A DNA stretch of 58,193 nt, filler included, from Sluysia triapertura (lineage: Eukaryota), in assembly GCA_046118255.1 (NCBI GenBank). It is 4 parts of 4 records of this genome, joined end to end, with 100 filler letters (N's around TTAATTAATTAA, not from the genome) between each part and the next. Parts side by side here need not be neighbours in the genome. Positions count along the whole stretch, not along the records: positions 1 to 14,395 come from JBJNIA010260955.1; 3 more parts are not named here. One strand, 5' to 3'. Shown here piece by piece: positions 2,485 through 49,492 of the stretch. A model generated the notes under the pieces. It saw only the letters and a program-made list of their open reading frames with translations, did not search any database and was not told the DNA's origin. A program made the position numbers and the translations under genes. The first letter of the stretch is position 1, and each line of letters starts with the position of its first letter.

Positions 2485-3588
2485 ATGAACAAGTTGAATT
2501 TTTCCAAAGTACTAATTATTTTTCTATTTATTTAAAGTGTAGTATCTTTCTAAAGACAGAGTAAAGAAAGACATTACTGAAACAACGAAAATATACTCAG
2601 ATCTTCATCCGAAAATGGAATTATTTAGTAATATATATATATGTTTATGAAATTTATCTGCTTAGCATTTAATAATGGTGTCCAGCGTAATCTTATAGCA
2701 TTGAGTGGTACAATTAGAGTTTTTTATATTAATCAGACTTATAATATACCAATATGTGTTTATCTTCTAGAAATGTACCCAAATGAAGCTCCAATGTGCT
2801 ATGTTAGACCTACCAGTACTATGGAAATTAAACCTAATAATAATGTCGATTTTCAAGGAAGAGTTACATTACCATATCTAAATGAATGGGCTCCAGTTGG
2901 TCTTCATTTTTCATGTAATCTATCTATTTAGAATAAATCAGATATTTCAAGTTTACTTTCTATCATGCAGATTGAATTTGGTGAACGTTCACCAGTGTTT
3001 TCTAAACAAGTTTACCAACCGCCTCTATATTCAGTTTGTGGTAAGTTTATGTAAATTCAGAAATTAATTTTTCCAGGTTCTCGTATCGGTTCTGGATGGA
3101 ATTCAAGTACTAATGCATCATATCCTTCTACTAATAGCATGTCAAATCCAACAACACAATCATACGTAGCTGGAATAGGAAATCCATACCAATCACAACC
3201 ACGTTATCCGAATCATTGGGGTTCTAATGGTGGAATTAATGACGTTATGAAACTATCATTAATGAGTGCCGTTGAAGATAAAATTTGTCGTAATTTTCGA
3301 GACATTCAATCGCGTATATCTGCTGAGATGGATGCGCTCAAAACAACAAGTAGAGAGTTAGAAAAAGGTTCTGAAAAAATTAAACGATTGATTAATGACA
3401 TAGATATGGAATTGGTATGGTAATTATGTCAATTTATTATCTTTATAGACTACAGTTGATAAAACAAATCGCGATATAATAAGTGAGAAAGAAAATTTGG
3501 AAGATACATTGTTGCAGTGTGAGAAAGAAGATAATGAGTGTGTAAATTTCGATGATTCAGTGGAACCATCTGCTCCTTTGTATAAGCA
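2485..3588 (+). CDS. TSG101: Tumor susceptibility gene 101 / Vps23 (ESCRT-I subunit), exons 1-6; terminal SB-domain exon not found
   Basis: Spliced by eye: exons 2485-2508, 2543-2627, 2666-2895, 2932-3040, 3077-3414, 3449-3588, with GT-AG introns of 34, 38, 36, 36 and 34 nt. The translation has the UEV domain (TFNNGVQRNLIALSGTIRV..TYNIPICVYLLEMYPNEAPMCYVRPTSTMEIK..VDFQGRVTLPYLNEW..FGERSPVFSK), the coiled coil (SLMSAVEDKI..AEMDALKTT..LEKG) and the ..DDSVEPSAPLYKQ motif typical of TSG101. Confidence 0.95.
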
Positions 3589-4971: not shown

Positions 4972-5113
4972 AATTATACCAATGATCGATTCCAAAATTA
5001 ATTATACCAGTTGAATCGTAATCGAATGTACCAAATTAAGATAAATTATACCAATGATTGATTCCAAATTAATTGTACCAATTGACCGTAATCGAATGTA
5101 CCAAATTAAAATA
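4972..5113. repeat. Tandem duplication, ~70-72 bp unit x2
   Basis: aattataccaatgat(c/t)gattccaaa..gtaatcgaatgtaccaaattaa occurs at 4972-5043 and 5044-5113. Confidence 0.85.
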
Positions 5114-6634
5114 ACCAAAAAACTTTTGTCTCTTTAAGAACTATATCTTTTCACTCGTGTTTTATAAATTAGTGCTATTTAATGTTTTCGTTAGAGCTTT
5201 TATACTCTTTTTAGCTCGTCTGTTTATAAATGTTCAGTAATTATATAATTATTTATTTAGCGTAAATTTCCTTATTCGATTATTATAATTTCCGTAGTTA
5301 AATATGAATTTTTCGAATAAACATCCTTATTTTTTGTAATAATAAAGATAAATTAAATCATCATAATGTAAGTTTCTAAAATAAACATAAAATAAATTTT
5401 CAAATAAACATAAATATTGTTATAATTGTTTATAAAATTATTATATTTTTACAATTAATTATTATTAGTTCATAATTTCAATTAAAATTATTATTATTTA
5501 GAATTAAATTAATATGTTTTTTACAATTACTATTTTCATTATTACTATTTATTTTTCAAATTTACAAGAATTTTACAATTATTATTATACACATAATTTT
5601 ATTTTTCTTCGGATATATTATTTACAGTATGTTTTGCATACTGTTGTTTTCTAGCGTCTTTTATCTTCTAAAGTATATTTATAATTAAGAGTGACTGTCA
5701 AGTTCTAATGAAATATCTCCTTTTACTTGTAGTTTTGCTTCACTTTTCTACGTTAAAACTGATTCAGATTTTTTGTATAATTTCAATAACTTCAGTTCTT
5801 CAAATGTTATCATTTGTGGTAATATACCACGTTTTACAACGTAAGAGCCACAATTTTATGTCAAATAAAAATATTTACTTTTAGTTTCTGAAATCATTTT
5901 GTCAGTTTTATAAACTATTTGAAATTCTGCAATAAGATTACGTTCTAATTTCATTCGTTCTTGGTATGCATTTTCTAAGGTATCATTGTTTTTCGAATAA
6001 GAATTTTCTTGGAATTTAAGGTTTGATTTAGTGCAATAAAATAATAAAATATTTAGTTACAATTTCAACACGATTTATAGAAATAAATAATTTTTGGAGA
6101 AATTCCGTGTTAGTTTAATAATTTATAATTTTATTTTGAAGTGTTTGAACGCTTGTCGGTTAATTTAGAGTTTAGTTGTTAGTGGTATTTTTTCAATATA
6201 CTTTTAAGTGAAAAGTTGAACCACCACAATTATGATAACTATTATTATTATTTTGTTAAAACTATCTCAATATTTGAATAAATTTGTGTCAAATGTCACA
6301 TTTCATTTAAAATCATCTAAAAGAATACATATATTTACAAAAATGCCTTTTTGTATTCAGTAATTTGTCCAATATGAAATGACCAAATGATAGAAATTCA
6401 AAAAATATTTTTAATCAAAACAACATCCATTTAATTTAAACATCGTTTTATAAATAAATTTCATTTTACGTATTATTTTATCAAAATATGAACGAACTAA
6501 ACTCAATTTAAATTTAATGAGCAATTGATCGCCTTACATTTTGAAAGACAAAAATACATGTCCAGTCCGTTTCTGCAGCCCACATTTATTTCAAATGAAT
6601 ATTAACGCTTCTTACCCGTGGGTAGTGTTTTATA

Positions 6635-6664
6635 AGTGACGCATGGATACGTCAAAGAGGTTAA
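6635..6664 (-). mobile_element. piggyBac-like transposon end
   Basis: Reverse complement reads TTAA-CCTCTTTGACGTATCCATGCGTCAC (TTAA target followed by CC-pyrimidine terminus). Confidence 0.4.
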
Positions 6665-6723
6665 CAAGTTAATTATAAGTATAATTATTTTAAATATTAT
6701 TATCAATTTATAATTATAAACAG

Positions 6724-6993
6724 TTTATCCACCAGATGTCAATGTTAATTCGAAATATTCTACAAATGATTATTATTTTTCTTACGATGGAAATATTAAT
6801 AGATCTGAAAGTAAAACTGATTGCCGGAATTGGGTTGATGTTTTAACTACATTTCAAATTACTTACGCGAATTTCTTGTATGCTAATCCGTTTAGAGCAT
6901 TAAATTACTGTCGACAAATCAATGTTAATGAAAAACTTCAGTGTATTACAAATCAAGGAAGTATAGAAACATGTGACATACCAAAATTAATAG
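6724..6993 (+). CDS. Exon encoding a kringle domain (four-cysteine variant)
   Basis: AG acceptor at 6722-6723 and GT donor at 6994, phase 1-1, open frame: ..NDYYFSYDGNINRSESKTDCRNW..RALNYCRQINVNEKLQCITNQGSIETCDIPKLI. This matches the kringle pattern Y.G....T....C..W...NYCR...C......E.CDIP. It is absent from the ORF track because it has no start codon. Confidence 0.8.
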
Positions 6994-8278
6994 GTGTTAA
7001 TTATATTTATTAAAAAACTTCAGTTCATTTATTTATTAATAATATTGTCTTTAGAATTATCTACTATTTTTTTACCTCTACGTACCATGATGCCATTTTT
7101 GATATATTATAAAAAGCCTTTTTAATGAAATTAAAATAACACAATATATTAGATAAATACAAGATATTAAATTAAATCTTTGTTAGGTCTTGTAATTTTG
7201 ATATCAATTATGTTAAATTAGTAGCTGGTATGACTTGCAATAGGACGTTAAATTAGTTCAAATTGAAGCATTAGAGTATAACACGTTAAAAGTATTTTTT
7301 CGATGAATTAGAATAACCAATACAACTCACCTGACAAGAACTGTAACTTCGTTAAATATAGAATTGTCATTGTAAATTTTTAAGTATTTCATCAGTAATA
7401 ATATTATATGAAGTGCTTCAGAAGAATCAGGATTGTGAAGAAGTTTAAGAAGCTTAAATTTCAAGAAGCGAAATTGATGAATCAAAGTTGATGAAGTTGC
7501 GTTACTGGAAATATAAAGTATTGAATCAAGACAAAAGGCTTAGCTTCTTGAGATTTAACTTCTTAATAAGCAATAAATAATTTTATAACTTCGTTTAATA
7601 TAATTAGACACTTTATTAACTCTTAACATTGTTATCTTTAAAAACATTAAGTTCATTGGAATTAGAATATTGAAAGAGCGGTAACGTGATTAAGTAATAA
7701 AAGCCAGATATTCCTTTATTTATCAATAGAAGAATCATCAAATAAACTAGTTTTAACAACATTTTATCATCTCGTTTGGCATACACCGTTTCGTTAATTT
7801 TTTAGGTGAACTTTTTGTGATATGTCGAAATGTTTGGCAGTAATTCCAGGCGAATATGACAATTTTAATGAATCAAAATTAAATAACTTCGAATCTTGAC
7901 AATGAATTAAAGAACAAAACACATGATGGTGTTGAAAATCAATTTTAAAATTTTATGTTTTTATTGCTTTTTGTCTACTCAATGTTTAACTGACGAATCT
8001 CAACAAAAATATCACTCCAATGTCAATTTATTATTACTGTCAACAATTTCTTGTGACCAAATTGAGACCAGTTTAATTCCACAGTCTTTGGTGAACTTTA
8101 GCGCTTTGTTAGAATTATCGAATTTATTTGCATTATTAACAATAATAATGTAATGAAATTACATTAAAGTAACATTAAAATAATTTAAAATAAATTAAAT
8201 TCTTTAACTATAACACAAGAACATCAAGAAACTGAAAAAACTTAAAATTTCGAAAATCGAATTGAAAACAATTCATAA

Positions 8279-8545
8279 ATGTACTCAAAAATAATAGAAA
8301 GAATAAAGCTTACCACATTTAATTGGCCAAGAAAGAAATCCCATAGGATAAGCAAAAACACCATAAACGTGAAAAGACATGAAAATCAAGTTGCTGATAA
8401 CTCCAACGTCAAAAAACTGATCTCAAATTTCAAACATATTAAGGTACCAAATTGTATTTAATATGAAAATATGCTTGAATTAGTTCTAGATATTGTTGAA
8501 CCATTGCCGTAAAATTTCAAAAATGGAAACGATATTCCGAAATGA
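8279..8545 (+). mobile_element. Gypsy-type LTR retrotransposon integrase remnant
   Basis: One frame with stops: KIIERIKLTTFNWP (zinc-binding-region K...RI...F.WP) followed in frame by LELVLDIVEPLP*NFKNGNDI (cf. PF....D..GPLP....GN.Y at the start of the rve core). Confidence 0.55.
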
Positions 8546-9654
8546 AAATAATTTAATAGTCGATTCGTTTGTACGCGACAAGATTGAGTCGCGTGATCAT
8601 ACTCCCTATTTATCTTTAGAATGTCCCAGTAAATGTTGCATATCGATTATCTGTGTGTCTTCTTAGTCTTATGTCAATGTAAAAAAGGACAAATGTTTCC
8701 CTTACCAATTCGAAAATAAAATTCAATAAAATAACATTGAACCTTTTGAATTACTAAAGTATCCTACACTTAAAACTATATGAACTTAAAGAAATCTCTG
8801 GTCTCTTGACCTACGACGTATTAGTGTTAAACTAAACCTCAGTCGTTCTTCTGACCTACTAAAATGTAAAATAATTTAATTCAACATACATTTGGTAGCA
8901 GTAGATCTAAGTAGCACTATTCAGATTATGATCCTAACATATTGTTTTATTTAAAATTGCATTCTAAAATTCTGAATTTAAGTTATTACACAACTTTCAA
9001 ATAACCATCGCTAAGAATCCTGATCATAAAACAATATTTATTTATTCTAACTTGTGTCAACAATATGTTCATAAGATTAAATTTGATGATGCTAAAGCCA
9101 ATTTCATAACTTATGACTATTGTAATCTTATTGCAAACCTTAAAGGTTCCATAAAAGAAATTATTTAATATCTAAGCAATACTATAGTGGTTATTTTTTA
9201 AAATATCTCAGAAACTAGTATTAGCTACTAAGTACGAACTTCTTGCTTCAGGTACAATATCTAAATAAACGAATTTTTTCTATAATTCATATTACTCTTG
9301 GTCGTCAGACCAATTTCTGCCGTTATAACACCTTAAACAATCCACATCCGCCAGATACATCTTCGTGTGTTTTGTAAATTTGTAATTGAAGTGTTATTTG
9401 ACACTTATTTGACATTTCAAATCTCATCTAGAAATATTAGAATCTTAAATCACTTTACGGATAATCAATGCATTTATTATGGCTAAAATTGCAACAAATT
9501 CAGAGATTTTTTCTATCGTATTACAGTAATCACTTTCATAATATAGAAATTTATGATAAGTTTTTGCTTGTATTTGTTATTAATTTCATCATAGTGCTGA
9601 GTAAGTGTTTTATTTACTTTTAACCTTAACCTGGCAAAATAGTTTTAATCTCAT

Positions 9655-9706
9655 GGTCCGTTCACAATCTACGTCTTACGCTCAAAGAGGGCGTAATTGT
9701 AGAAAT
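9655..9706. repeat. Dispersed hairpin, copy 2 (most divergent), ~50 nt past the protease stop
   Basis: ggtccg..tctacg-tc-ttacgctc-[aaaga]-gggcgtaa-t-tgtaga-aat; followed by ataaaagatttt, as in copies 6 and 7. Confidence 0.55.
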
Positions 9707-9756
9707 ACGACGATAACAGTATTCTTAAAATAAAAGATTTTAGCAACTTCGAGGGT

Positions 9757-10065
9757 TTATATATCACACTGTAAACCAAATTGTGATAATACACCCATGC
9801 CTAATATCATATCTTCTGGACATTTTCTCATTACCCAACATTTTATTTGAATTTTGTTTTGTCCGATTTCACGTAATATTTTTAATACTCCTAGAATTCC
9901 AATTTCATCTCCAGTTATTCCTGTTAAATATGAATGTTGTTTAACTAAATTGTTTAATTCCTTAGTAGTTAATAACAATTCACTTATTAATGAGGCAAAA
10001 GCTCCTTTATCAACTAATGCAGATTACATTCTTCCATTAACTCTCATGTCTACCATAGGTCTTCG
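9757..10065 (-). pseudogene. Retropepsin-like (A2 family) aspartic protease domain at the C-terminus of the polyprotein
   Basis: RRPMVDMRVNGRM*SALVDKGAFASLIS..LTGITGDEIGILG..CWVM..DMILGMGVLSQFG: catalytic ALVD(T>K)GA motif (one nucleotide from DTG), flap GITG and C-terminal ILG motif. Confidence 0.85.
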
Positions 10066-10203
10066 TGCACTGTTATAATTATTATTAGCACAAATCATAT
10101 AAATTAGATTTCTTGGAGGTGGTTGATATAAACTTTGTTTTTCTTCTTTGATTGGTTCAATATCTATTGTTTGTAATGCTATTTTTTCAGTTTGTTTTTT
10201 CTA

Positions 10204-12080
10204 TTTCTTTAAAGCATTTAATTGAGCGTGCGCATGATGTAACAAGAACGCTAAATGGAAAACTAAAAATGGAAAACATCCAATTATTAATTTCCACGTA
10301 AAACCTGATATTTTATAAATACCTACAACTGAAAATATTTGAGAGATTACAAGTGCAATAACTTTAATTAATACATATATTCCTATAAAACCTGAAAAAG
10401 CTTGACCTATAACTAAAAAATTTTCCCAAATTTGTTTTAAAGTATTATGTACTCCTTTCTTAAAATGATCGGGTCCTAGTAGTAACTCAAAGTTTATCTT
10501 TCAATCTTTTTCTAGTATTGCTTTATCAACTATGTTAGTAAGTATCTTAGATCTTTTAATTGGGAATAAGATTTCGTGCCAAGCCGCTTCAGTGTCTTCA
10601 TTTGAATAGATTCCTGATCTTGGAATGTTTTAATTTTAATTTTGTTTTCAACTATGTTAATCCTATAATTTCCGGAGTTTTAACTTGACTTCTGTGTGGT
10701 AAAGATATCCAAAGATTATCATCGATTTTATATTCTGGAGAAATCACATTAGAGCAGTGTAGTGTTTTTGGTTTCAATTTATTAGTTGGCATAATAATTC
10801 TAGTAACTGGTTCTAAATAAGTATTTTGATTTTTATACATTACCTGTAATTCATTAGTGCATTCGCTTTCTTGTCTTATTTGCACTTCAACCTTTTTACA
10901 TTTGTATGTATATAGAACTTCACCCATCAGCCTACCAAATACTCCTTCTTCTAACGGACGTAATGGTGCTACTAAATCTGGGTTAGTTATTGCTACAGCT
11001 AATTTCGTTCTTAATATTTCTTTGTTTAATTGACAATCTCTAGATATCAGAGCTTGATAAACTTTTTTTAATGACATAAGTCCTAAATCAATTTTATTGT
11101 TAAAATATGTATTTAATTGTAGATTCTTTGTGTCTATTCCTTTCTTGGCTTGAAGTATTGTCTTTTCTGATAAATATATTCCTTGGTACTTTGTTTTTGT
11201 GATTTCTTGTCCACATCTAATTTCTTCGATACAAATATTAATCCATCTTCTTCTTTGTTTGCCATTAAAATTTTCGGAGTTTTAATTTCATTAAGTCTTT
11301 TTCTTTCCGGTACATCTAAATTAACTTTATAGATTTGTTTTTTATTTATTTCTTATACAGCTAATGCATCTTCGTTTTGATACATAAATCCCGAAATTAA
11401 ATTATATTTAATTTGTTTCAAAGATAATAATGGACACTGGAATTTTTCTAATACATATATTAACATAGATTCACCGGTATCACAACTGGTTTGATCACTC
11501 TTACAAAATGGTCTGGACATCATAGTGCCTTTTTCTAAGTTGAAACTTTCATTAAAAAATTTTAAACTCACTACGTATGTTTCCTGCGCGACGACATTAT
11601 GATAAATTTTTCCTTCTCATTCTATTGACCCTCGCTCACAAGTACCGCCCATTAATACATTACCAGCTGTTCTGACATTATAAATTATTTTCTCATTATT
11701 TTTAATTTTAAGTTTATCTGCTTTATTTAAACTTGTGTATCCAGTTTCGAAAACATTGCGACAATTGTTAGGCGATATTTTAAATGGTTTTAACACATTT
11801 GTTATATGTATTATTGAAGAGTAACTGTGGTGTCCACAACACAAAATAACTACAGATCTTTTACTAAGCATTCTTTAACCAGTGTTGCAACTAGATGTCC
11901 TTCTTCGTAAACATTTAGTATTTTAATATCTTTTATTTTGACTTTATTTGGCCTCGATTCCGGACAATCTTCGGTGTCCAATAAAGAAAATTGGCTACAG
12001 TCAAAAGCTTCTATAGCATTGGTTTTATGAATTCCAAATAATTCCAATAAAACACATTATAAATAACACATTATTTAGTG
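10204..12080 (-). pseudogene. Chuvirus (Jingchuvirales)-like class III fusion glycoprotein / env, decayed
   Basis: Across frameshifts: signal peptide NVLFIMCFIG..TNA; IEAFDCS.QFSLLDTEDCP; KECLVKRSVVILCCGHHSYSS; CRNVFETG; AGNVLMGGTCERG; CDTG; CGQEITKT; YFNNK; YQALISRDCQLNKEIL..AITNPD..GEVLYTYKCKKVEV..CTNELQV..YLEPVTRII..C..P.Y....W; SGIYS..EILFP; TM region IWENFLVIGQAFSGFIGIYVLIK..GFTWKLIIG. This motif order is the one I recognise from chuvirus-type glycoproteins and their endogenous copies. Confidence 0.85.
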
Positions 12081-13756
12081 AAGTTCCAAAATGTGGAAAT
12101 GATTGATTTAAATTTTCTTTATTGTTAATTAATTTTGTTAATTTATTGTTAATTAATTATTAAGCGGTTCGTTTATAGTATCCTTTTCTTCTTTTTCTTT
12201 AATAATATTTTTCCAGCTATCTTGTTTATCAATCAAGGTACTTCATTTCTTATTAACAAAGTTTACAATTTTATCTATCTTTTCTTTGGTTAAGAGTGCA
12301 GCTTTATTGCATTATGTAAGCCATTATTATTTTGTCTTTCTCTATTAATGCCTGCATTAATTTGTTTGTTATTATAGTTTTATATTGACCATTATCAATG
12401 TAGTCGCTTATATCTGTATTTTTATATTTTTCTTCCATCATTTTAATTATCTTATTTAATGTACTTATATATTCTTTTAGTTTCGGTAATAATGTATTAT
12501 ATTTATCGACATTAGAAAACTTATTAGATTATAATACATAAATTATACTTTTGCATTTAATGTTTCTTCTAAAGTTTTATGATTAATTTTTTAAGTCAAT
12601 TACTTTTCTGCGTATTGGGGTTGAGATTATTGTTTCATCATCATTATCTTTATTTTTTCTAGGATTGCTTGGTCTTTTTTTTAAAAGTATTTGTCTCTTT
12701 ATCTTCTGTTATGTGGGTTTTTGTTTACGTCTATTATACAATCAGGTTTCTTCTTTTTTATCATTGGTAATATCAATAATTTTATTTTTATTATTTTCAT
12801 TGTAATTATGTCCATTAATTCTCTTAATAGTGACCGCAGCATTCTTTCTAAATCAACATCATTGTAGTGATTTATTAGTTCATCTAATTTTCTTAAATCG
12901 TGTGGGGGTTAGTATATTTCACTATTACTGCGGAAGTCATTGATGCTTCCTCATGGTTTCCATTCATCGATGGGTAACTGTAATCATTTGTATAATCATT
13001 AGGTGCTAATTTTCTATCATAAAAATATGGATCAACATCAGTTATAGTGGAGTCATTTGATTTAAGTAATTTTATAATGTCTTTTACTGTTGACATTATT
13101 GGGAGTTCCACGGTAATATTCAGGGCATTATTAATAATTATACTTATTTTGATTATTATTTAGGATTATTTTCTCTTTCTTTTTGACCTATTTTTCTTAG
13201 TAATTTTTTTTGCATTAGTCTTATATAAACTATCTTCATTACTTAAAATAGCGAATATTAATTTGATATCATCTCATTTTGCACACTTAGTTCCAAATTC
13301 AATAATTCATTTAAATTTTCATTTAAATCTTTAGAATTTGTAATTTCATTTGCCATATCTGATAAAAATTTTTCAACTTTTTGATCACTTTCTTTAACTT
13401 TTGATTCTGGGGTATCTATCTTTAATTAGCTGATATTATTATTACTGATTCCATATTTTCTATTTCCATTTCTTCCTTGGCACTGTAATACGCATTTTCG
13501 TCACTTATCTCCATTTCTTCTGCTTGTACTCTTCAGCATCAGTTTCTTTGTTAATATTTTCTATGTCTGTTTCTACTTCTTCATCATCACTTAGTTCATT
13601 ATTTGTTTCCGAATTATTTGATTGATTTTTTTCATCATTTATTTCTACTTGATTAATTTCTTCTTCTGTTGAAATTGATTCAGTACTTGGTTCCTCTTCT
13701 ATTTCGTCATTTTTATCTTGTGCTTCAGATTCTGTTTCTTTATCTTACCTTCCCAT
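12081..13756 (-). pseudogene. N-terminal part of the env-protease polyprotein (acidic low-complexity N-terminus plus conserved ~110-aa domain), decayed
   Basis: ATG at 13756, then MGR*DKETESEAQDKNDEIEEEPSTES..LSDDEEVETD. Continues through frameshifts via ORF 12893-13111 to SNKFSNVDKYNTLLPKLKEY..MEEKYKNTDISDYIDNGQ..KKIDKIVNFVNKK..IDKQDSWKNIIKEK, then the glycoprotein signal peptide. Confidence 0.6.
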
Positions 13757-14395
13757 TTATCAATTATTTCTCAACACAAAAATTACACCATAACAAATTT
13801 TACACATATCATTCACAACATTACACCACTCATCATTATAAAATTACAAGCTCCTGGTAAAATTTCTTTTATTTGCATTTTTAATCAAAATATTAAACTC
13901 AATGTTCATTGTCATTTTTATTATCATTATGACGCACTATCCTTTCTCCCGATTTTCAATTTTTATTTTTTTCGCGATTTATCTGTTAAAGCATCTCATA
14001 ATATACAGAGTTTAATGGAAATTAATATAGATGGTATACTAGTATAAAGAAATTGCTTGAGAATATATCAAAATTGCACTTTTATTCGAAACAATAAATG
14101 AATAAGAAAGAATTATTAAAGGAAAAGAATAAATAATTATTTAGAAATTGTATATCGTAGCACTTTAAAGTGACTTTCATTAAAAAGCTAAAATTTACAT
14201 AAAATACAAAAATAGGTTTATTAATCTTATTGCATTTTCAAAATATTAATTCACATGAGATACCATTAAATTTTATTAACTTATAAATTTAAAATAATAT
14301 ACTGCGGAATTTATATGAATCGAATATGTTGTTATTGAGTCACTTGATATATGTTTTTGTTTAAATCAGCTTTTTGGAATTGTGAGAAGTTTTTT

Positions 14396-14495
14396 NNNNN
14401 NNNNNNNNNNNNNNNNNNNNNNNNNNNNNNNNNNNNNNNTTAATTAATTAANNNNNNNNNNNNNNNNNNNNNNNNNNNNNNNNNNNNNNNNNNNN
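14396..14495. other. Artificial contig linker (44 N + TTAATTAATTAA + 44 N)
   Basis: Identical 100-nt construct occurs three times; the 12-mer puts stop codons in all six frames. Confidence 0.95.
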
Positions 14496-14727
14496 TGTCG
14501 AAGCTTAGTATGTTAGAGATGGTTGATATATTATGTGATTTGTTGGTGTATATGAGTTAATGCGGTGTTGTGGTTATCGAATGTTGTTTTATGATGTTTG
14601 TGTTGGTGTATTTGGGAAGTAAAAAATACGATTATTGTGAAGATTGCATTTTGGTTTATAAATATTGATTTATAAATATTTGTTTTGATATTTTGATTGG
14701 GTTTAGAAATGAGTGTTGACCACTACA
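14496..14727 (-). repeat. Solo-LTR-like repeat fragment (strand-skewed, TGTAGTGG..CAAC terminus)
   Basis: GT-rich on +; ends gttgaccactaca; same terminal motif at 165-179, 6215-6228, 15780, 17444, 19264 and 20314. Confidence 0.5.
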
Positions 14728-23560: not shown

Positions 23561-24729
23561 GATTATATATTGAAATTAAAGACACCTTCGGTTTTAATGA
23601 GTGAAATGAGTGAAGAAAATCTTATTTAGAAACTGCTTTCTAAGAAACCTAAATAAAAATTAATTTATAATTGGATACCACTCATTTTGTGGAAAGAACA
23701 AAATTTTAAAAATAGAAAGGCAAGATAGATTATGCGTTTAAAAGAATTTTATGCAAAAAACATTAAAAATGATGTCGAAATTTTTTTGTTTTAATATTAT
23801 TATTATTTTACAGATTTAAAAAATAATTTGGAAATATTTAAAATTTTAAAGTTGAACGATTTTCTGTGTTATAAAATTTGATACTTGCTAAACAAATAAA
23901 TACGTTTCTATACATATGTAATGATGATAGAATTGGTATTAACAAATCAAATAATAAGGTATTTATTAAGTGATCTAGCGTGCCTTATCTGATTCTGATT
24001 CAACACGTTGAAAATATATTCAAATTTAAAAATTCATTTATTAATTAATTTATTTATTAGAATTAATCAAAATTATACACCGCAGTCGCCACACGATTTA
24101 CGTAAACATGCAGTAAATGTAGAAAAGATTCATCTAAATGATAATATTATACCGATCTTAAATTGTTCCCATTTACAAACCTTGAAAATATTTAAAATTG
24201 AAGTTGGAAAGTTAGAGTTACAGAACAGAATAATCAAAGAATCATTTCAAAGTTTATAGGAAGGGAATTCTAATATTATTAGAATTGAAGAAAAGCAGGA
24301 TTAAATGTAATTCCGATAATATATATTATATTAAGAAAAATAATGCATACATCGATGTGTCATATAGATGTGTTTCTGATAATGAAATATTGGGAAGTTT
24401 TCGTTAATTAAAAACTTCTATTAATGCAGAAATTATTCAACCACTGCATCTTTGTAATTATTATTAGTACGTATCACCATGTAAACTACATATTGATGGT
24501 GATGTTTGTGGAATTCGGTATTTCTATTTATTTTGTCGGAATTTCTTTTTTTATTTGGAATTCCAGCATTTTCTTTGGACGAACCTGTGTTTTCCTTATT
24601 TATTTGGCTTCTGTGTATTTTTCATACTCGGAATTCATCATTATCTTGATAAACATTTCCGGACACTAAGTTAAATTTTATTTGTTTCAAAAATATTAAA
24701 CAACATTGCACTATGTGCAACTCAAATTA

Positions 24730-26730
24730 AAGTTGATTCTCCGGTGTCACAATTCTACAGAATGATCGCGATACCATAGTTTCTTTTTCCATACCAAACA
24801 TTCATTAAATGATTTTAGACTTACAATATATGTCTTTTGTGTTATGAAATTTTATAGTTTTCCCTTCGTATTCTATAGATCCTTATTCGCAGGTTCCAAT
24901 ATGGTAAATTATATTTCATTATTTATCCTGAATTAATTGCCCTTATTTAAACGTATATATTCGGTTTTAAAAGCATTTCTACAATAGTTGGGCAATATTT
25001 TAAAAAGTTTTATATATTTGATAACTCTCTTACTGAAGAGTGGCTGTGATGTCCACAATACCGTATTGTCATAGAACTCTTTACTGCACAATCTTTTACT
25101 AGTGTAGCAACTAAATTTCCTTCTTGATAAACTTTAAATTTTTTGTCCTTAATTTGAATTCGGTTTGGTCTAGATTCTGAACAATTAAGAAAATTTTTAC
25201 ACAATTTTGTGTATAGCAAACATATTAATAGTATGATTATGAAAAGCATGTTATTTGTCTGACAACCTAATCTTGGAATTACTATGCTCAATATTATATT
25301 ATTACCAAGTGTATTTGAAAGTGTATTGAATAGTTCGTCGAAATTTTGATTATCTTTTTCTTTTACTATATTTCTTCAACCTCTTTGGTTATCGATCCAT
25401 AGTTTAAGCTTTTTGTCAATAAATTCTATAACTTTATCTATCTTTTCAATTGGTAACAATTTTCCTTTATCGCACTGAAATGTAATATAAGTTTTAAGTT
25501 TTTCGTTGCTTAAACCTACATTAATACGTTTATTTATTATTGGCTATTATCTGTATAATCACTAACGTAATTATTTTTTATATTTTTCCTCCATTTGTTC
25601 CATTATTTTTAACAGTGTAATCTATAATCCTTTAATTTAGGAAGTATTCTCTTATATTTATCAAAATTTGTAAATTTCTCAGACCTTCTATCAGTTGTTT
25701 TATAAAAGAATGTGGAGTAGCACCTAAATCAACTTTATCGTCAGATTTTCATTCAGTTAAATTCTCGATGGATTTATTTTGAATTTGAAAGGTGACAAAA
25801 TTTTAAGTTTTCATTGTGATTTCGTAAATGGTAAAATACAAGTTATTGACGGATCATTTAATTTAGATAACTTCTAATTTAATTTAGATACCTTCTTTAT
25901 CTAACAATGTTACTGGTAAGTGCATCAAAACATCAATTGATCCATTACTTAACACATTAATTTTCATTACCCTTTTCAGTTCCTCATTTCTTTCATTTAA
26001 CAGATTTTAAAAGATCTCTTGCTTTAAGGACTATCTGTTGGGCTGCATACCATGCATAATTATATCTGAATCGAGTAAGTTATCCATATTTCTAGCAATA
26101 TTTTTTTGCCTCTGCCATACTTTTGTCTAAATCCGAAAGGATTTTCTTTACTTCTTTTGTTAAATTTGGTTCAGGTGTATTTAACACCATGTTCGGTGAA
26201 ATGTCTTAGTTGGCTGATATTATTTGGCTCGATTTTATTTGAAACATCAGAGTTAAGTACTACATTTTCACATATCCTCGCACTGATGATTGACTTTATT
26301 TCTTCATCATATAAGCTTATTATTGACATATTTCTTTCTCATTATTTAAGCTCGATTCTTGTTGTTTTTTACTTGGTGTCATCTTAATATTATCTTCTTA
26401 AAATTTCTTAAAATTTTTTCATTTTTTATTTTTCCATTTCTTATACATTCGTAATTGTTTCTACTCGTTTTGATTCCTTATTTTTTCCTTTTTATTACTT
26501 TAAAAAGTTTAGAAAATATTCGCATAGGTAGTTAATATAGGTTTTGTCCTCCTTTTCTTTTCTTCTGGATTTTTTCTTTCGTCGCAGTCCTCATCATCCA
26601 ACTTATTAGATAAAATTCTTGTAGTACTCTTCGTTAATCTGCTTTGTCTTCTTTCGTATCCATTGTTTTTATAATCCACATCACTATATTTGTTGTTTTT
26701 TCTTTGTCTTTCAATATCTATGGTCAATTA
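24730..26730 (-). pseudogene. Second, diverged copy of the glycoprotein polyprotein element (5' half only)
   Basis: SEKFTNFDKYKRILPKLKDY..MEEKYK..SDYTDNSQ..INVGLSNEK..PIEKIDKVIEFIDKKLKLWIDNQ; signal peptide NNMLFIIILLICLL; CSESRPNRIQIKDK..VYQEGNLVATLVKDCAVK..YCGHHSHSS..CRNAFKT..GTCE.GSIE..TMVSRSFC. Collinear with 11500-12540. Confidence 0.85.
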
Positions 26731-29271: not shown

Positions 29272-29985
29272 AACATCCAAGGTTAATAGGTGAAAAAATA
29301 TAAATAGCACTACATTTAACAATAATTTACACAATTTTGTAAACACAATTTTGTAAACATAATTTTGTAATCTCATTTGTTCCACAATTCAATCTTCTCG
29401 CAGTTTTTTGGACAAACAATTTTTCACCTATTGTAAACGTTAGTTTGTTTTGTTTAAGGCAAGATATTTTTTTTATAAAATATCAGTGTAAAATCAACTT
29501 AAATTCTTTAATAATTGACTTTTGTGATCAATGTAAAATCATTTAAAAATCTTAATAAATCGGAATTACAATCAGTAATTTCTGCTACAAGATATTACTA
29601 TTATTATTATTTTATTCTAACCATCATACTTCATAATTTTTCTTTTGATTATAATAAATCTTCTTAAAAAAGTAGCATCGACTTTTGATATAATTAAAAA
29701 GGATAAAATCTTGAATTGAAAAATAATTTAAAGAATCCTTGTTATATGATTTATGTAAAATATAAAGAATCCTTATTATAGGATTTGTGCAAAATAACTT
29801 TTAAATTGATAACATAAGAAACGGTAAGATTAACCTCCAGACGTTAAGATATATATAGTTAGAAAATTGTTAAATTTTCAAGGCTTTAGATATCTTTTTA
29901 TTTACGTAAAATCCAACGGCTGGCCCTCGCTAGTAAGTCCAGTACGTTGGTGAACTCACGACATCACAGTTTTAACTTTTATTAT
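29272..29985. mobile_element. Non-autonomous hairpin-family element (~0.7 kb) containing hairpin copy 3 (29909-29959)
   Basis: One end aacatccaaggttaatagg matches 35749-35768 (reverse complement); acctcca at 29833; hairpin ccaacg-g-ctgg-[15]-ccag-ta-cgttgg-tgaactcac; internal 14-bp x3 and 34-bp x2 repeats. Confidence 0.55.
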
Positions 29986-33419: not shown

Positions 33420-34200
33420 TATAGTTTTTTGAAAGAACAAATTTTTGTAAATTTTTACGAAGTGGTATTCGATTCCTGCTGAACTTGCTTGATAAATCTT
33501 GGTTTAATAATAATAATAATACGTTAGTTTATTGTATTAAGTCACGGATATACGACATGCATCCACGTAAAATCTTTTTTGTAAATTTATTTTGTAACTA
33601 TTTATCAAAAAAGATCTTATCAAAATAGATCTTTCGCAAAATCGTCATTAAAATATTGTCATTTCAGGAATTAAATCGATTAAATTAATTCCTCGTAAAT
33701 TAGTTATTTTATTACTTTTATATTTCATTTGTAATTTTATTTAGCCATTATTTAACAAATTTTTCTTTTAAGTAATTATTTCTTCATTGATTAATTTTCA
33801 TAGTTTAAATTATAAAATACCCAACAGATTAAAGATTTCAATGATTAGAATTTAACTCTAATCACGTAAAATCATTTTCATAGATCCTTTTCATAGGATC
33901 TACGTAAATTACTCTGTAAATTATTTTTATTTTTCAGTTAAATAACACATTTATAAATTTGATATCAGTAACAGTTTTGCATTAACTTTTATTGAAATAC
34001 CTCCAGAATTAAACTAGATCTTCTAGATTTGTAATTAATAGCCAAGTTATTAAGCAAAAAGTATCCAAGTAAAACCATACACTCTTTAGAAAGTTATTTT
34101 AATCTTCACTTAAAAATCTTTTATCTACAAATCCAACGGCTAGCCTTAACTGGTAAGCCTAGTACGTTGGTGAACTCACATTAAAATCCTACTTTATTCT
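33420..34200 (+). repeat. Left arm of a large inverted repeat, containing hairpin copy 6 (34129-34179)
   Basis: Long collinear matches to the reverse complement of 34634-35310 (e.g. aaaatcattttcatagatccttttcataggatct, ttaaattaattcctcgtaaatta, gaaatacctccagaattaaa). Confidence 0.9.
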
Positions 34201-34209
34201 AAGAATCTT

Positions 34210-34470
34210 CACATATGCATGATGAAACAAATCGTCTAAAAGAACTTTTTCGAGAAGCACAAGACAAGCCTATCAAAAAAAGTATCATTAGATATAATAA
34301 ATCATTAGTAAAATAAATCACTTTTGTGCATACTAAAAATTTAAATTATCCATTTTCTGTTTGATATATTTGGATCTATGATGAACTGAAAGAAAATTAT
34401 GTCGCTTGGTAAATTTAACAATATTTTTGCGAAAATTCAAAACATGAATTAAAAAAATTGGTTAAACTTA
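34210..34470 (+). mobile_element. Possible retrotransposon integrase C-terminal remnant in the inverted-repeat spacer
   Basis: RLKELFREAQDK..RYNK..FSV*YIWIY loosely resembles the Gypsy IN tail (..Y.K.....F.VGD.VW). Confidence 0.25.
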
Positions 34471-34633
34471 GAAAATAATTTCACAATACTTACTAATATA
34501 TTAATTAATATTACTATGAATTTGTAATTAAAAAAGTCGAAATGATTAACAATTCTTTTATACTCTAATTATTAAACGGAGTTTAATTATTCAAATAACA
34601 CAACATTATTTGAGAATTTTAAAAGAGAAGATA

Positions 34634-35768
34634 GAATAAAACAGAATTTTAACGCGAGTCCACAAACGTACTAGGCTTACCAGTTAGGACTAGCCGTTGG
34701 ATTTGTGTATAAAAGATTTTAAAGGTTAGAAAAAATTGTCTGAGGTGTGTGTAGATTTGTTAGGGTATTCTTTACTTAATAACTTGACTATTAATTTCAA
34801 ATTTAATTCTGGAGGTATTTCAAAACTATTAATGATAATAAATTTATAAACATGTTGTTAACTGAAAAATCAGAAAAAATTTATGAAGTATTTTACGAAG
34901 ATCCTATGAAAAGGATCTATGAAAATGATTTTAAGGGATTAGAGTTAAATTCTAATCGTTGAAATCGGTACTCTACTGAAGATTTTATAATTAAAGCTAT
35001 GAAATTTAATAAAGACGAATAATTACTTGAAAAATTTATTAAACAATAGATAAATGAAGTTACAATTGAGAGTATAATAAAATAAATAATTAATTTACGA
35101 GGAATTAATTTAACTCCTGAACCAACACTATTTTAATAAAGAATTTGCGTAAGATCTATTATAAGATCTTTTGAAAAGTAATTACAAAGTAAGTTTAAGT
35201 CTATTTTGCGTGGATATGTGTCCTACATCCGTGACCTAATATAAGAAACTAAAGTATTATCTTGATTAAATCAGAATTTGTCAAAAAACTTTTGTTTTCT
35301 CAAAAGATTATGTTAAATTCGGATTTTACAAAAAAATTAACTATTTGACAAATTCTGCGACTTTTATAGTCGTCTTAGCTGGCCTTGGCCAGATTAAAAC
35401 AAATTATTTAATTAAAAAATTAAAACAAATTATTAAAATTAAATTTAAAATTATTTATATTTAACAATGTAAAAATTGCTTACGTTAAAATTAATTCTTT
35501 TAAATCTAAATAAACGAATTATAAAATTGTCAATAAAATAACAATAAATGAATAAAATTATCAATAAAATCAATAGTAATCACATATAAAAGATCAAAGT
35601 CACTTAACATTGATTTATTATTAAAGATTAAAGTCGTAATCATAAAGTTGTAATCATCATTAATTTACAATTAAAATCTTATACAGAAAAAAGAAATCAT
35701 TTGTTATAAGATATAATGTATTTTTCCTTTTTAATTCCTCTACATAATCCTATTTACCCTTGGATGTT
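34634..35768 (-). mobile_element. Non-autonomous hairpin-family element (~1.1 kb): right arm of the inverted repeat, with hairpin copy 7 (34654-34704)
   Basis: Hairpin, tggaggt at 34810-34816, and far end cctatttacccttggatgtt (35749-35768) shared with 29272-29290. Confidence 0.7.
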
Positions 35769-40536: not shown

Positions 40537-43500
40537 GTGGATCGAAATGGCTTCGTGCCACCAAAATTGTTTCAGGTTATTTTAATATTTCAAAAAATTA
40601 ATTTTACACATTAAAATCGTAAAAAATTAAAGATTATTAAAAATATATTGTCACTTTCAAATCAAACCGAATCATTTATTCATTGGCCACTTTCTAATTT
40701 CTAAATTTAGCAGAAATTTGCTGACAAATATTAAAGTAAAATGCAAAATTGAAAAATCGTGTGAATAATAGAAGTATTTGATCTTATTGTTAACATTCCG
40801 GTCCAATGTTACATGAAAATTGTACAATGATGTATTAAATAAATATATTTAATGAAAAAATTTACTTTGTTATTTTATGTGTTCAATTGACCTGTATGGT
40901 ATGCATTGAAGGTTAATATTTGTTAGATTTTATTATTAATTATAGTTTTGTAACACTTTTATAAAATAATATATCTTTGGTGTTCATTTTTAAAAGAGAT
41001 TAAGGAATCTTTATTAATATTGTTATTGTTCTTAATTTTTATATTAAACTTTATACTTTACTATAATATTTAACCATTTTAACCATACGCAATACAATAA
41101 AAGCCACAAAAATTATAAATTAAAATAATCAAACTTAGACAAGTTCTATTTAACATTTATGAACCATTATTTTGAACAAAAGGAATTTAAGAAGAACCTT
41201 TTGAGGAAATTTTCACTTGCTGTGGTTTTCTTAAACAGGGTCCGGTTACAGTAAACGTCTTATAGCGCTTCTGTAACTAATAGGTTAAGAATTTTACCAT
41301 ATTTACTTATAAAATCCGTTTAACACGTTCTTAACAAATTTGTTACGAGGGTCTTAATTTTAAATAGCACAATGAATGAAAAACTCAATTAACTTTTGAA
41401 TTAACTAAATGTATGTGTATAAGAGATTATGGTACAAAATAGAAAACAACCAAATAAAACGTATATATTATTTTATGATCTAAATCCTCTTGGGATATTC
41501 GATCTAATTGCTTTCAAAATTTAGTTAGAAAATTTCCTCTCAATATATCGAGGTCCTTACAATATTAGAACTAAAAATTGATTTTTCCTGTATTTTAGGT
41601 TCTTGACTTATAAAAATCAAAATCACCTTAACAATAAAATAAGTTATCCTTTCATGGAACATAAAAATCCTCGTATAATAAATTTGTTCGAAGTCCAATC
41701 CGATCTGTTTAAGAATACAATATATTGTTTCACAATGACGTCGGTTATAAAAAAAACATTTCTATACAAATTGGTTAAAATTACAAATGGCGCTGAATAA
41801 TATAAAATGGCGATTTTCATTAAACTCATGAAATCGATGGAATGTTCTAGATCATTCTATTTAGAGAAGCGAATTTTCTTTTTTGAAAATAAATTTTTTG
41901 GGAAATAAACATTTTTAAGTGTTTTTAGACATTTATAAATAATCTAGAAACATTTTAAAGACTTAAACTAATTCTTATCTATATGACGGGTAAGAAATTT
42001 CTTATTTTAATTTTAGTATTACATAATTTACTGTTATGTTTGACATCATTATCAATAAAATCTTTATAAATAATTTACATGCAATCAGAACTTTTCTGTG
42101 CGATGTTCCATTTTTAATTTCACGAATCCAATGTTATATTATTCATTGAATTTGAATTTGAAACTTTTATTATTATTATATATATATAAATGTAGCATTG
42201 GAATAAAATTTATAGTTAAGCAAATATTAAATTTTAGTAATTGAAACCATTCTGCTGCTGCTACAGCTGTTCAGTGATAATGAATGAATGAGCAAGAAGA
42301 ATATGTAAAATTAATTGGGTAAGGAGGAAGATAAACATAGGTACATGTATTCATACAAAATCGAAATAAAATTGTTATGACATTTTAAAATTGAATGGTG
42401 TAAATACTGAATGAGGATTCATGTGATTAATATGATGTCGTGTGTATAACTTAACAGTTCTAATTATTCTGAATATTTTCACAATATTCCAATAATAAAA
42501 TTATTTTAATGTTTATAAATAATATCAAAAGATAAAATTATTATGTATCAAATGTGTATTAATATTTTTAATACAGGATGGTGAATACGAAGTTGCTAAA
42601 TTGTTAATAACCGATAAAGATGGTCCTGAAAATCGTGATCCGTTTTTATGTCAATTAAAAATATCACACGTGAATCGTGATTTATTCACAAACAATCAAT
42701 TTGATTCTTCAATTGTAACAAAATTAAAAATAAAATTTGAAAAATCTACTCAATCATGTCGAATATTTATTCTAGACAAAGTACCTTTTAAATTAGGTAC
42801 TTATGAATTCAATTTAAGTGTCAATGATCGTTCAAGTAAGCATTTGTTAAATATTATAACTTAATATTAAAAATATTGTACTTGTAACATTAAAATTTAT
42901 ATTTATTCTTTGGTGAAAAAAATCAATTTTTTTATAATTATCTGAAGCTATTTTTGCTTTAATTTCATTATTAAAATTATTAAGTTAAAATAAACTCTGT
43001 TTTATTTTAGAAACTTTTTGAAAACTTAACTTTCAACTATAAAAGACAATTTACCGAAGTATACTGATTAAATTTAAATAGTTGTGAAAGTATTGATTTA
43101 TATTTAGTTGAAAATGACATGCCACAAAATATTTAAAAATTACTGCTCAAAAATTCAAAATTGATACACAAAATTTAAAAGAATTATTAAAAATAATAGT
43201 TAAAAAAGTGTTGCTGTACCTCGAGAAAGAAAACTGAATCTAGGAAGTACATTTTTTCTAATGAAATTATCTTTGTCTGGTTACACGATTTATCTAAAAT
43301 ATACATTTGACTTTTGAAGTTCCTGTCTTAGGAATTTTTTCCATTTTCGTATGCTATAATAATAGCAACAAATAAAAATTGTTTTTTTGAAGAACTCAGA
43401 AATAAAACATTAAAGCATCTTCAAAATTACACTAAAATATTTATTACCCACTACTGTAGCAAAAGTTTGCTTATCAGTTTTTACTTGTAACGAAGAAAGC

Positions 43501-44559
43501 TTTGATAACTATTCTTATAGAAATAATTTCTGGAAGTAGTTATATTAAGCCAAAAGTATTCAATTTTACAAAGTTTAATTTAAAAGAATAAAATCATCAA
43601 ATTTGAAATGCAAGTGTGCTTTATCATCTTCTTGAGTTAGTTTATAACTTAATCAAAAAGCTTATTAAAAGGTATATGAAAAGCCGAAAATGAATTAAAC
43701 AAATATTATACAACATATAAAGATGCAAAATGAAACAAAAACAATTACTAATTCCGAAAAATATTAAAACACGTCATTGTAATTAAGCAAAATTATATAT
43801 TTTATCATTTTTATATATTTTAACAACTGATAATTTCTAGCTTTCCCTTTTAAATTACTTTTTTGATAATTCAAATGCGAATTTAAATTATAATAATTAC
43901 ATTTATCGATTATTTATCGATTATTATTGATTTTATAATATGCAATATTATACTGATAATTTGACTTTATTTACATTTTGATTTTTATTGTTTGTAGATG
44001 CAAATCCACGTTCTCTTTCGACTACAATTCCAATAATCATACACGTTATTCGTCTTGGTAATATCCCCCCTGAGATAGAACCATTACAAATAACTCATGC
44101 ATATTATCATGCTGCTTCCGTTATAACATCAACTGATAAACAGGAGTTAAAATATGTAGACAATAATTGGGCAGCAAACAGTGCTGCTGCTATTATTACT
44201 ATGGTTCCTGTCAGAGATAGGTCGCCACTTTACGATAGATTGCGTTTCGAGATAGTTATAAATACAACTGCACGTCCAAATGATGTATATATTCCTCAGT
44301 TATTCAGTATTGACCCTGTTACTGGTATGATAAAAGCTAAACAGCAATTGGATTCTGGAGAATATTCTCTGGAAGTCAAAGTTACTAATGGAACATTATC
44401 TAATCAACGAGTTATTAGCATAAATGTAAGTTTAAATAAAAATAATTTGATATTTTACAAATATTTGCTGTTTAATTGTGTACAATATGTAAAATGGATT
44501 GTTTGTTTTGTAAAAATATTTAAAATCACTTTTACTTTAAAATACCTTTAAATTTTAAC

Positions 44560-44616
<57 letters not shown>

Positions 44617-47304
44617 TATAGTATAAATTTAAATTAATATTTTTAAAAATATTCCTTTTTGCAGTGAAAATTCTTTTTAAAAAAGTTATCATTTCATTAA
44701 GGTAATTGCTATAACTGAAGACATGGCAGAATCAGCAATAATTATTCGATTATATTCAGTAAATCCTAGAAGATTTCTAAGTGATAAAATCGACAAAAAA
44801 ATGGGAGATTTCTTGAAGAAAACTTTTGACACTAAATTAATATATTTGTTGTCTTTACGTGAATATGACAAATTCAATGATTTTGATGATATGATTGATA
44901 AAGTAAAATCATCACGCCAAAAACGTCAATTAAACAATCTTGATGAATCAATAGAAGTTTTGGTGACAGTTTATGATCAAGAAAATAATCGATTTTTAGA
45001 TAAAACAAATGTTGTCGCGTCATTATGGAAAGTAAGCTCTGAAATGGCTCGAGAGCTCGGAGTCTCGAAAGTAGTTGCTTATGGAGATGTATGTCGAAAT
45101 AATTTGGCAAATAGAAAACAACAATTGGTTTGTGTCAGTGGTGAATGTGTTGCAAAAATCAAAGTAGATGCTAAGAATTATTATAGTACTGTTCAAGTAA
45201 AATTATTTAATTAAATTATTAAAACAAAATTAATTTTTTAATTGTATACAACAACAATAAATGACATTTATCTATTTGTTAAATTTGTGAAAATACAAAG
45301 TTCTAAGACATTTAGTATTATTAATTAACATTTGTAATATTATTTTAACGACCTAAGTAAGTTTTGTTATTATATTAGAAATTCAATATTAGTATTAGTC
45401 TGAAACTTGATAAGTCTGGAAAATTTAATAAAAATCAAAAATTGTATTGTCAAAAAATGGATCCATAAATATCATACTTTTGTTTTATAGCATAATAATT
45501 TGTAGAAATTGAAAAAACTACGAAAGGTACAACTAATATTCATAAATGGCAGTAAATATTCATCAGCTCTTTCTCATCAACTTTCTTGTCGCACGCGATG
45601 TGACCGTTAATCATCTTTAATCATTATTATTTCCATAATTATTAATATTATTAGTAATTGCATTATTAAGAATTACAAATGCTATTAATTTATAATAATT
45701 TTTAATTTTCAATTATTAATTCTATTAATAATTTTTATTATTAATTTAATTTTTGATCTAGATCTGACAGATGATTTCATCTGCAAATCCTTTGGATTCA
45801 ACAACATAACTCGAAAAGATTTTAACAAATATTTTTATCAGAAATATTTGTAGAAAAAAGGCAAAGCTGATTGATAACTAATTGATTTATTCTTCAAAGT
45901 ATACACCCATGTTGGCCATACATTTAGGCGGCAAGTTGTCAGGCCGGTGATATAAAATCCTGACGAACGACAGTCATTGAATTCTTAGAAGACCAGTTTT
46001 AAATGTCAAAATTAAATTGTTTTCCTTTTAAAAATTTATCTAAATTTCGGAAGAAGTGGTAATTTGTAAGTATTGAGAGTGATAAAGAAGTTCTATAGTG
46101 GTTTGTGTAGTATGTGTTCTAGCCGTTGATCAATCTAGGCTGTTTTTCTTTACGTTTTGCATCATTTCGTCCATTTGATTACACTTTATTTCAGCTGTGA
46201 TCGATGAGCCAAGTTTCATGAAATCACAATGGATCGCACCTGCGCTAGACCACCAAACACTCATCAGCTTCTTTAGATGATTATTGTGCTTTGGAATGTG
46301 TGAACGTTTATGATTGTCAGATTGGATCCATTTCTCATCTGAAGTGACAATTCAATCAAAAATTGGACAGATTTGTGTCGAGAAAGCAACATCAAGTAGC
46401 TCCTAATTCTTTTGTTTCTGTTTTTCATTCAGTTCATGTCGAACCTGCTTATCCATTTTGAGATAAATTAGTTAATATTATTTTTTTGCTTTCACACAAC
46501 TCTGAGATTGGTCAGACTCAACGATGAACATAAGTTTGTCAGTATAAACCTTTGATTTTGATTTTAAAGTTTTTAAAGCTTACGATGATGTTTTAAGGAC
46601 AAAAAGAAAAGAGTAAAATATTAAGCTGTTAAAATTGACTATTATTAACTACAAATTTCATCATTGCCAACCTAATATATAACCTTACTCTTAAGAACCA
46701 TAACAAGATGATCATCCATATAAAAATTTTAACAAACCGTTCACTAATAATCAAAACAATCTTTTCCCTTTTTAATAATTCATAATCCATGTTTTCCTAA
46801 GTGTAGTAGAAAATTAAAATCAAAATATCGTGCAAAACTTATAATTAAATAAAAGTAAGCAATATAAAAATGGTATAATCGATAAACTTATTTCTTACAT
46901 TGGACATTAATGATATAATAAAAGTATATACCTTATTAATATTTAGTAAATTTGATTAATTATCCTTATGGTGTTTCTATTGTTTGAAGATTATTATTTA
47001 TTGAATTTATTGAACTTTTATTACATTTTAAAGGGTGGATTTCAAAAAATGTCTGGACCGCGATTTAAATACGAATCTCAATGTAAATGCCATGAACATT
47101 TTGGTGGATCAAATTGTCAACTTCCTTTAAATAAGTGTGCTCATAAACCATGCACCAAGCCTAGAATATGTCGACCAACACCTTCAAATACTCCACGTTA
47201 TCAATGTGAATGTCCACCGTTTAAAACCGGAAGATTTTGTGAGCAAGTTATAAGTAATGTAAAAAATGGCGATTGTCTAGATCATGATTGTGTTAAAGCA
47301 AGAG
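40537..47304 (+). CDS. Fat-type (Fat1-3/kugelei-like) cadherin, internal exons: last cadherin repeats, membrane-proximal domain and EGF repeats
   Basis: Phase-compatible exons 40537-40575 (tentative), 42577-42835, 43998-44425, 44702-45196 and 47034-47304: ITDKDGPENRDPF; FSIDPVTGMIKAKQQLDSGEYSLEVKVTNG; ITEDMAESAIIIRLYSVNPRRFL; RQKR; CVSGECV; CKCHEHFGGSNC..CAHKPC..YQCECPPFKTGRFCE. Confidence 0.85.
44559..44615. repeat. (AAT)n microsatellite in a cadherin intron
   Basis: About 18 perfect AAT units. Confidence 0.95.
45890..46675 (-). mobile_element. mariner transposon remnant in a cadherin intron
   Basis: TIR TA-TTAGGTTGGCAATG at 46675; decayed transposase with QVRHEL (WVPHEL), IVTSDEKW, MSVWWS, ITAE, STARTH (DNARPH) and YHFFRNL motifs. 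Confidence 0.9.
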
Positions 47305-49157: not shown

Positions 49158-49492
49158 CATATCTTTCAAAATTACTCAGTCTATCTAGTAAAAAGTGAAG
49201 CAAACAATGATGAAATTCTTCACTATCATATCTTTTAAAATTATTCAGTTTATCTAATAATAAAAAGTGAAGTAAACAATGATGAAATTCTTTGCTATGA
49301 TATCTTTTAAAATTATTCTCTTTATCTAATGATAAAAGGTGAAACAAACAATGATCAAATCCTTTACTGTTATATCTTTTAAAATTATTCTGTTTAACTA
49401 ACAATGAAAAATGAAGCAAACAATGATCACATCCTTTACTATAATGTCTTTTTAAATTATTCAGTTTAACAAAAAGTGAAGCAAACAATAAT
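49158..49492. repeat. 72-bp minisatellite, ~4.7 units, open on the minus strand as a 24-aa repeat
   Basis: (c/t)aaacaat recurs at 49201, 49273, 49345, 49417 and 49482; ORF 48976-49488(-) repeats LNNFKRY.S..FHHCLLHF. Confidence 0.9.

Follow-up and report, generated by a model that had tools for sequence, protein, structure and literature searches.

A probable remnant of a Burro-like Ty3/gypsy retrotransposon, with a chuvirus-type glycoprotein fused in frame to a retropepsin, in the genome of Sluysia triapertura

What kind of element leaves a chuvirus-like fusion glycoprotein joined to a downstream retropepsin, with no reverse transcriptase (RT) or integrase behind it? This question is raised by a minus-strand locus of the animal Sluysia triapertura (assembly GCA_046118255.1), which lies in a 58,193-nt stretch of joined genomic records (hereafter the window). 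We interpret it as a dead piece from the interior of a Burro-like Ty3/gypsy long terminal repeat (LTR) retrotransposon whose gag and RT-integrase ends have been lost, a reading to which we assign a probability of roughly 0.86. The whole remnant, an internal polyprotein gene fragment without capsid, RT, integrase or LTRs, occupies 9710..14105 on the minus strand as judged from contig depth and null searches, with edges resolved to about one 314-nt bin. An initial annotation had placed the feature at 9757..13756; the feature is real, and homologous repeat sequence extends it upstream to about 14100. The domain order in the window is ubiquitin-like, Bcl-2-like, signal peptide, envelope glycoprotein (env), transmembrane (TM) segment and protease.

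The core of the locus is the junction of glycoprotein and protease. The minus-strand segment 10620-9760 forms a single frame with exactly three stops (10501, 10201, 10024), as the initial annotation had described, and the identities it proposed for the two domains are borne out by Pfam: the reading matches the Monjiviricetes fusion glycoprotein family PF24664 over residues 2-161 (E 1.1e-20) and the gag-asp protease family PF13975 over residues 190-280 (E 2.6e-7). Three further pieces upstream also match PF24664 (E 5.8e-34, 3.7e-8 and 1.6e-10), and on these four pieces the Monjiviricetes/chuvirus-type env gene is located at 10237..12053 on the minus strand, where three frameshifts (near 11860, 11220 and 10640) and several stops interrupt it; two extra stops among these lie within 11862-11224. 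The glycoprotein (G) is labelled putatively as class III (gB-type) from PF24664 together with the relevant parts of PMC13524379 and PMC7642597. It is preceded by an internal signal-peptide-like hydrophobic stretch (12034..12090, minus strand; Kyte-Doolittle peak 1.71), for which the relatives show a counterpart at the same position, and it ends in a predicted transmembrane anchor (10318..10374, minus strand; hydropathy 2.44) followed by a weaker hydrophobic stretch (10296-10240, hydropathy 1.98); a single helix of TM strength is likewise found at the env end in all eight relatives inspected. The retropepsin (9760..10059, minus strand) is in frame with env; a single stop lies inside it, and its catalytic triplet is altered.

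PF24664 is a model of a negative-strand RNA virus family, and solo glycoprotein insertions are described as common in the relevant part of PMC7642597, so one might suppose that an endogenized chuvirus or mononegavirus glycoprotein gene came by chance to lie next to a protease from an unrelated retrotransposon, or that the junction is an assembly chimera. Related proteins speak strongly against this. A 209-aa env piece compared with longer proteins found matches in 3 of 458 candidates, at 45-49% identity; in each of the three a protease comes after env in one open reading frame (ORF), the third ending inside the protease. The env-protease reading gave 143 protein matches, four of which (P0008, P0010, P0011 and P0012) cover the whole of G, TM segment, linker and protease in one continuous stretch. 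By tblastn the window G is collinear with P0002-P0005 and with the metagenome locus L001 (best segments 45-53% identical), and the window env piece shares 53% identity with L001. In an env tree the window G falls inside a clade of 21 rows (SH-aLRT 99) that holds all polyproteins, and not with the short G rows; the other 20 clade rows comprise 18 polyproteins or cut forms of these and two short unscanned fragments, and the 42 rows outside the clade are 296-738 aa long, their domains not scanned. A chimera is contradicted by a 2,855-nt contig without differences, which spans 6965-9819 in a public sequencing run; because it crosses the protease end, the sequence behind the protease must be real DNA. 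We therefore regard chance juxtaposition or misassembly as highly improbable. The proposal of the initial annotation that the locus derives from an enveloped retroelement whose gene order is non-canonical holds, in that the G-protease fusion is real and continuous in the relatives.

The initial annotation was also correct that no polymerase follows the protease in the window. Neither tblastn nor profiles over 1548 pieces found RT, RNase H, integrase or capsid in any of the window's six frames, the best RT profile score (E 0.07) lying at an unrelated place; what comes after the protease in the relatives likewise had no profile match in the window. A 15-codon tblastn tail beyond the protease (to 9712) was considered as a further trace and was dropped when the profile search gave no confirmation. 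From the in-frame fusion and the missing RT, the initial annotation had envisaged a structural cassette of a novel enveloped virus or element, comprising a matrix/capsid-like protein, env, a readthrough stop and its own protease, and depending on a separate segment or partner that encodes the polymerase. In the relatives, RT instead follows the protease within one ORF, an outcome that the initial annotation had itself named as refuting its proposal. We scanned the domains of 18 of the 143 matches, selected as top-scoring or long: 12 carry env and retropepsin in one ORF and five of those 12 also RT. Beyond these, the cluster mates P0005 (4,844 aa) and P0148 (3,003 aa) each have a single ORF that encodes env, proteases, RT, RNase H and integrase. 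The same holds from env through integrase for the metagenome loci L001 (3,426 aa) and L003 (2,693 aa), and altogether nine relatives have G, protease and RT in a single ORF. No relative was confirmed among IMG/VR contigs in two pattern scans (8 and 69 matches), and two ESM Atlas searches gave no usable match. A two-part element of this kind is thus very hard to reconcile with the relatives, and its remaining elements, the upstream domain and the readthrough stop, are contradicted by the results given below.

The polymerase of the relatives identifies the type of element. Their pol regions match RVT_1, RT_RNaseH, Integrase_H2C2 and rve, with no family specific for BEL listed, and for a profile that combines the window piece with five relatives the best solved structure was Ty3-G Gag-Pol (E 4.8e-47). 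The window protease scores 58.6 bits on the profile of the relatives' RT-adjacent protease versus 42.8 on that of their extra proteases. Gag, which comprises capsid and CCHC knuckles and would open the ORF, is absent in the window and present in P0019, P0011, L002 and L003: P0019 shows a Retrotrans_gag match and P0011 and L003 a CCHC knuckle upstream in the same ORF, whereas in L002 the gag features precede env across one stop. This stop is a single in-frame TGA (L002:3058-3060) that divides the gag-ubiquitin-like-Bcl-2-like part from env; P0003, a close relative, has no break at this point, and the TGA may reflect either decay or readthrough.

Upstream of env, the conserved domain of about 110 aa (12186..12528, minus strand; interrupted by one stop and by a frameshift near 12310) had been suggested to be matrix- or capsid-like. 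No capsid profile matches it, and by profile comparison it is Bcl-2-like, with a modest match in the window itself. The two best window loci of a profile built from five relatives are the two halves of this domain, in order, and the window region read with an X at the break scores 15.1 bits, a value reached by none of 2000 shuffles. This profile matches Bcl-xL and Bcl-2 (E 8e-5) over what we take to be the BH1-BH2 region, and P0018 has a Pfam Bcl-2 match just upstream of env (E 0.00096, under the curated cut-off). For L002 the domain was modelled with confidence (predicted local distance difference test score, pLDDT, 84.5), and the model shows that the motif of the relatives belongs to a complete Bcl-2 fold. 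Compared with 48,161 chains, its ranks 1-33 are all of Bcl-2 fold, the best being a Bcl-2 protein (Z 14.0, root-mean-square deviation 2.6, 134 of 134 residues aligned), and unrelated rows begin at Z 6.2. With Foldseek the best match in a viral library had E 8.4e-3. An earlier model from three sequences had reached a pLDDT of 53 and was weak in Foldseek, and the corresponding three-sequence profile recovered just its three inputs among 4066 sequences. Further upstream lies a decayed ubiquitin/SUMO-like domain with two stops (13058..13252, minus strand), to which a profile of five relatives gave its top window match (13252-13058; E 0.0034 among 1548 pieces, a modest value); the L002 member matches Pfam ubiquitin at E 0.0047. 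The remainder, 13260..13756 on the minus strand, appears in six-frame translation as an acidic low-complexity coding remnant, without significant match to the N-termini of P0003, P0004 and P0005.

Diverged copies of the family are seen in one public sequencing run that contains the stretch, and which may be the window's own source and thus not independent of it. At a matching threshold of 80%, contigs of this run on 5000-14390 amounted to 11,934 records, 9,301 of them less than 95% alike. Summed contig depth, which does not equal copy number, was 8,269-228,213 over 9710-14105 compared to 60 and 153 in the adjoining bins, and marks a large, diverged repeat family. All three stops of the env-protease frame are read otherwise in other contigs (26, 55 and 68 contigs, more than 99.7% of depth) and are therefore private decay of the window copy. 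This includes the TAG at 10201, for which translational readthrough had been considered: 55 contigs with 99.9% of the summed depth read otherwise there. Nor does the hairpin noted 3' of the protease hold up, as 33 of 200 shuffles fold equally well (z -0.99). A second, more decayed copy is present at 24596..25683 on the minus strand (PF24664, E 7.4e-6), comprising the Bcl-2-like region and the first part of env in two blocks at 66% DNA identity to the first copy and ending inside env.

The same depth profile could be taken to indicate a natural, non-autonomous subfamily without RT, that is, a deletion derivative of a Burro-like element which kept the ubiquitin-like domain, the Bcl-2-like domain, env and protease and relied on full-length elements for copying in trans. 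Depth is highest over env and protease (82,686-228,213) and drops to 60 just past the protease, a fraction of 0.01 of the contig records continues into unlike sequence, and no trace of the post-protease segment is left. However, a peak over env-protease is expected from stronger conservation at an 80% threshold, and the family contigs listed are short (219-766 nt) and need not reveal what comes next. In addition, the capsid is missing as well, the piece has no flanking LTR, the end of the second copy lies at another place, and all scanned relatives that extend well past their proteases show RT or end before reaching it. We thus consider such a subfamily unlikely, and equally doubtful the more far-reaching version in which it was amplified, possibly in a host outside Burro's planarian family, while supplying envelope and anti-apoptotic functions in trans.

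Decay and truncation of a full-length Burro-like element account better for these observations, and this lineage is already in print. As described by Arkhipova and Yushenova in 2019 (PMC6431247, in its passage on these elements, with Jurka 2007 and Grohme 2018 as sources), the planarian gypsy elements Burro/GYPSM1 have the order Gag, Ubi2/SUMO-like, BCL-2, env, protease (PR), dUTPase-like and RT, with an env that matches mononegavirus fusion glycoproteins and lies in frame between gag and pol; decayed Burro fragments were noted there in a third planarian, and BURRO1 is called an abundant transposon controlled by PIWI-interacting RNA in the pertinent part of PMC8532177. The fusion of an RNA-virus-type fusogen between gag and pol with a Bcl-2-like domain is thus published, and novelty of the arrangement, as implied by the initial annotation, cannot be claimed in view of the passages cited from PMC6431247 and PMC13524379. 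The window shares with Burro an env in frame before the protease and of mononegavirus type, a BCL2-like domain directly before env (in the window itself by indirect evidence), a ubiquitin- or SUMO-like domain upstream, all in one frame, as well as high copy number and decayed fragments. The relative P0005, with 4,844 aa and ankyrin repeats, also resembles Burro1, which is given in the same passage of PMC6431247 with 4,873 aa and ankyrin repeats. In contrast to Burro, the window copy lacks gag, a dUTPase-like domain, RT, RNase H, integrase and LTRs, including the PR-RT-RNase H-integrase order that continues to RT in the nine relatives, and carries many stops and frameshifts; no MATH, BIR or Smc motif was seen here. 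Burro elements are giant (over 30 kb) and come from planarians, and the window's host may or may not be a planarian. Because gag and RT could not be found in the window copy, we classify it as a remnant of the Burro lineage and not as a complete member; it most likely makes nothing and is inert.

Two other systems invite comparison. Errantiviruses with a GAG-ENV-POL order and an HSV/gB-type env (HSV, herpes simplex virus) occur in nematodes, bryozoans and flatworms (Chary and Hayashi, PMC13524379; Sacco 2022, cited therein), and in the parts of that paper bearing on env they resemble our element in having env ahead of pol in a Ty3/gypsy element and a gB-type fusogen. Its six Platyhelminthes_C1a env rows have motifs in common with the window clade, and the nematode and bryozoan rows inspected look more distant, both by eye. 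That paper treats the parts as ORFs, and in its available text the words 'Bcl', 'polyprotein' and 'Burro' are absent. Anakin, a mosquito BEL/Pao element with a chuvirus glycoprotein (as presented in the relevant part of PMC7642597), is similar as a retroelement bearing a chuvirus-type glycoprotein; in contrast, the pol of our relatives is Ty3/gypsy and not BEL, and their env is fused in frame before the protease.

Several points weigh against the interpretation as a dead Burro-like fragment. The truncation is deduced from the sequences of relatives at 45-56% identity and not from intact copies in the host genome, the likeness to Burro was judged from its description, and that to planarian env rows (eLife supplement) by eye only. 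The env tree holds 63 segments, from 79 matches, each covering at least 110 query positions, and comes from a quick tree search. A flanking direct repeat that could represent LTRs is absent among the 20 largest repeat families listed, with an N gap at 14396-14496, and L001-L003 show no LTRs or target-site duplications on contigs that barely exceed or cut the ORF. Most of the remaining points concern the Bcl-2-like domain: the five relatives of the profile were chosen via a motif spotted by the analyst, Foldseek with the L002 model returned from the PDB only rows of the Bcl-2 family, yet none at E <= 0.001 (best 5.5e-3), and the corresponding region of the second copy scores 7.5 bits, inside the shuffle range. 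With the unbroken half of the window region, Bcl-2 was not listed by Pfam, and a homologue search retrieved 0 of 37 candidates.

The relatives show additional features in their own right. Several retropepsin-like domains occur per polyprotein, with three motif matches each in L001, P0003 and P0009 and seven in P0005, some of them past the integrase; multiple domains were also noted for P0011, and the Burro passage of PMC6431247 does not mention them. All six full-length relatives examined (L001:8927-10282, P0005, P0009, P0013, P0148, L003) have an extension past the integrase with a signal-like and a TM-like helix, which suggests a second membrane protein. This extension contains a motif that is presumably fibronectin-type-III-like, for which Pfam and PDB sequence searches found nothing. 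A separate ORF after the polyprotein (L001:10617-12107) matches RNase T/DEDDh-type exonucleases (PF00929, E 1.4e-5) and is possibly an accessory gene. The label of P0013, which is a complete env-pol retroelement polyprotein, makes it a hypothetical protein of a Flavobacteriaceae metagenome-assembled genome; it likely represents animal DNA binned into a bacterial genome.

The surrounding window is AT-rich animal DNA (18-30% GC) with intron-broken host genes and N gaps. Host gene exons encode a UEV domain (TSG101-like, E 1.1e-28; 2632-3423), a kringle (E 1.5e-5; 6720-7013) and cadherin and EGF repeats (42523-47354). A long imperfect inverted repeat at 33680-35113, several arms of which are 75-85% complementary, looks like a foldback or MITE-type (miniature inverted-repeat transposable element) DNA transposon, with a related piece at 29909-29960. 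A tandem repeat at 49117-49545 consists of five copies of a 72-bp unit.

For an intact element, the order of domains would imply an unusual topology. The single polyprotein would keep its Gag, ubiquitin-like and Bcl-2-like domains in the cytosol, the internal signal peptide would thread env into the endoplasmic reticulum, and the single TM helix would bring the chain back to the cytosol. Protease, RT and integrase would then begin tethered to the env tail, until the protease cuts them free, and this tethering would couple packaging of Pol to the budding membrane. Apoptosis in the producing cell would likely be damped by the Bcl-2-like domain, for which the signal peptide that follows may serve as an anchor. 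Whether Burro-like elements form infectious particles or block apoptosis was called untested in the corresponding passage of PMC6431247 in 2019. As a locus, the window copy, which can be likened to the structural half of a Burro element, is a dead repeat fragment of little importance. The lineage itself is of real interest, and our analysis adds to it a model of the Bcl-2 fold, further relatives from public assemblies, and a topological argument that Pol may be made tethered to env.

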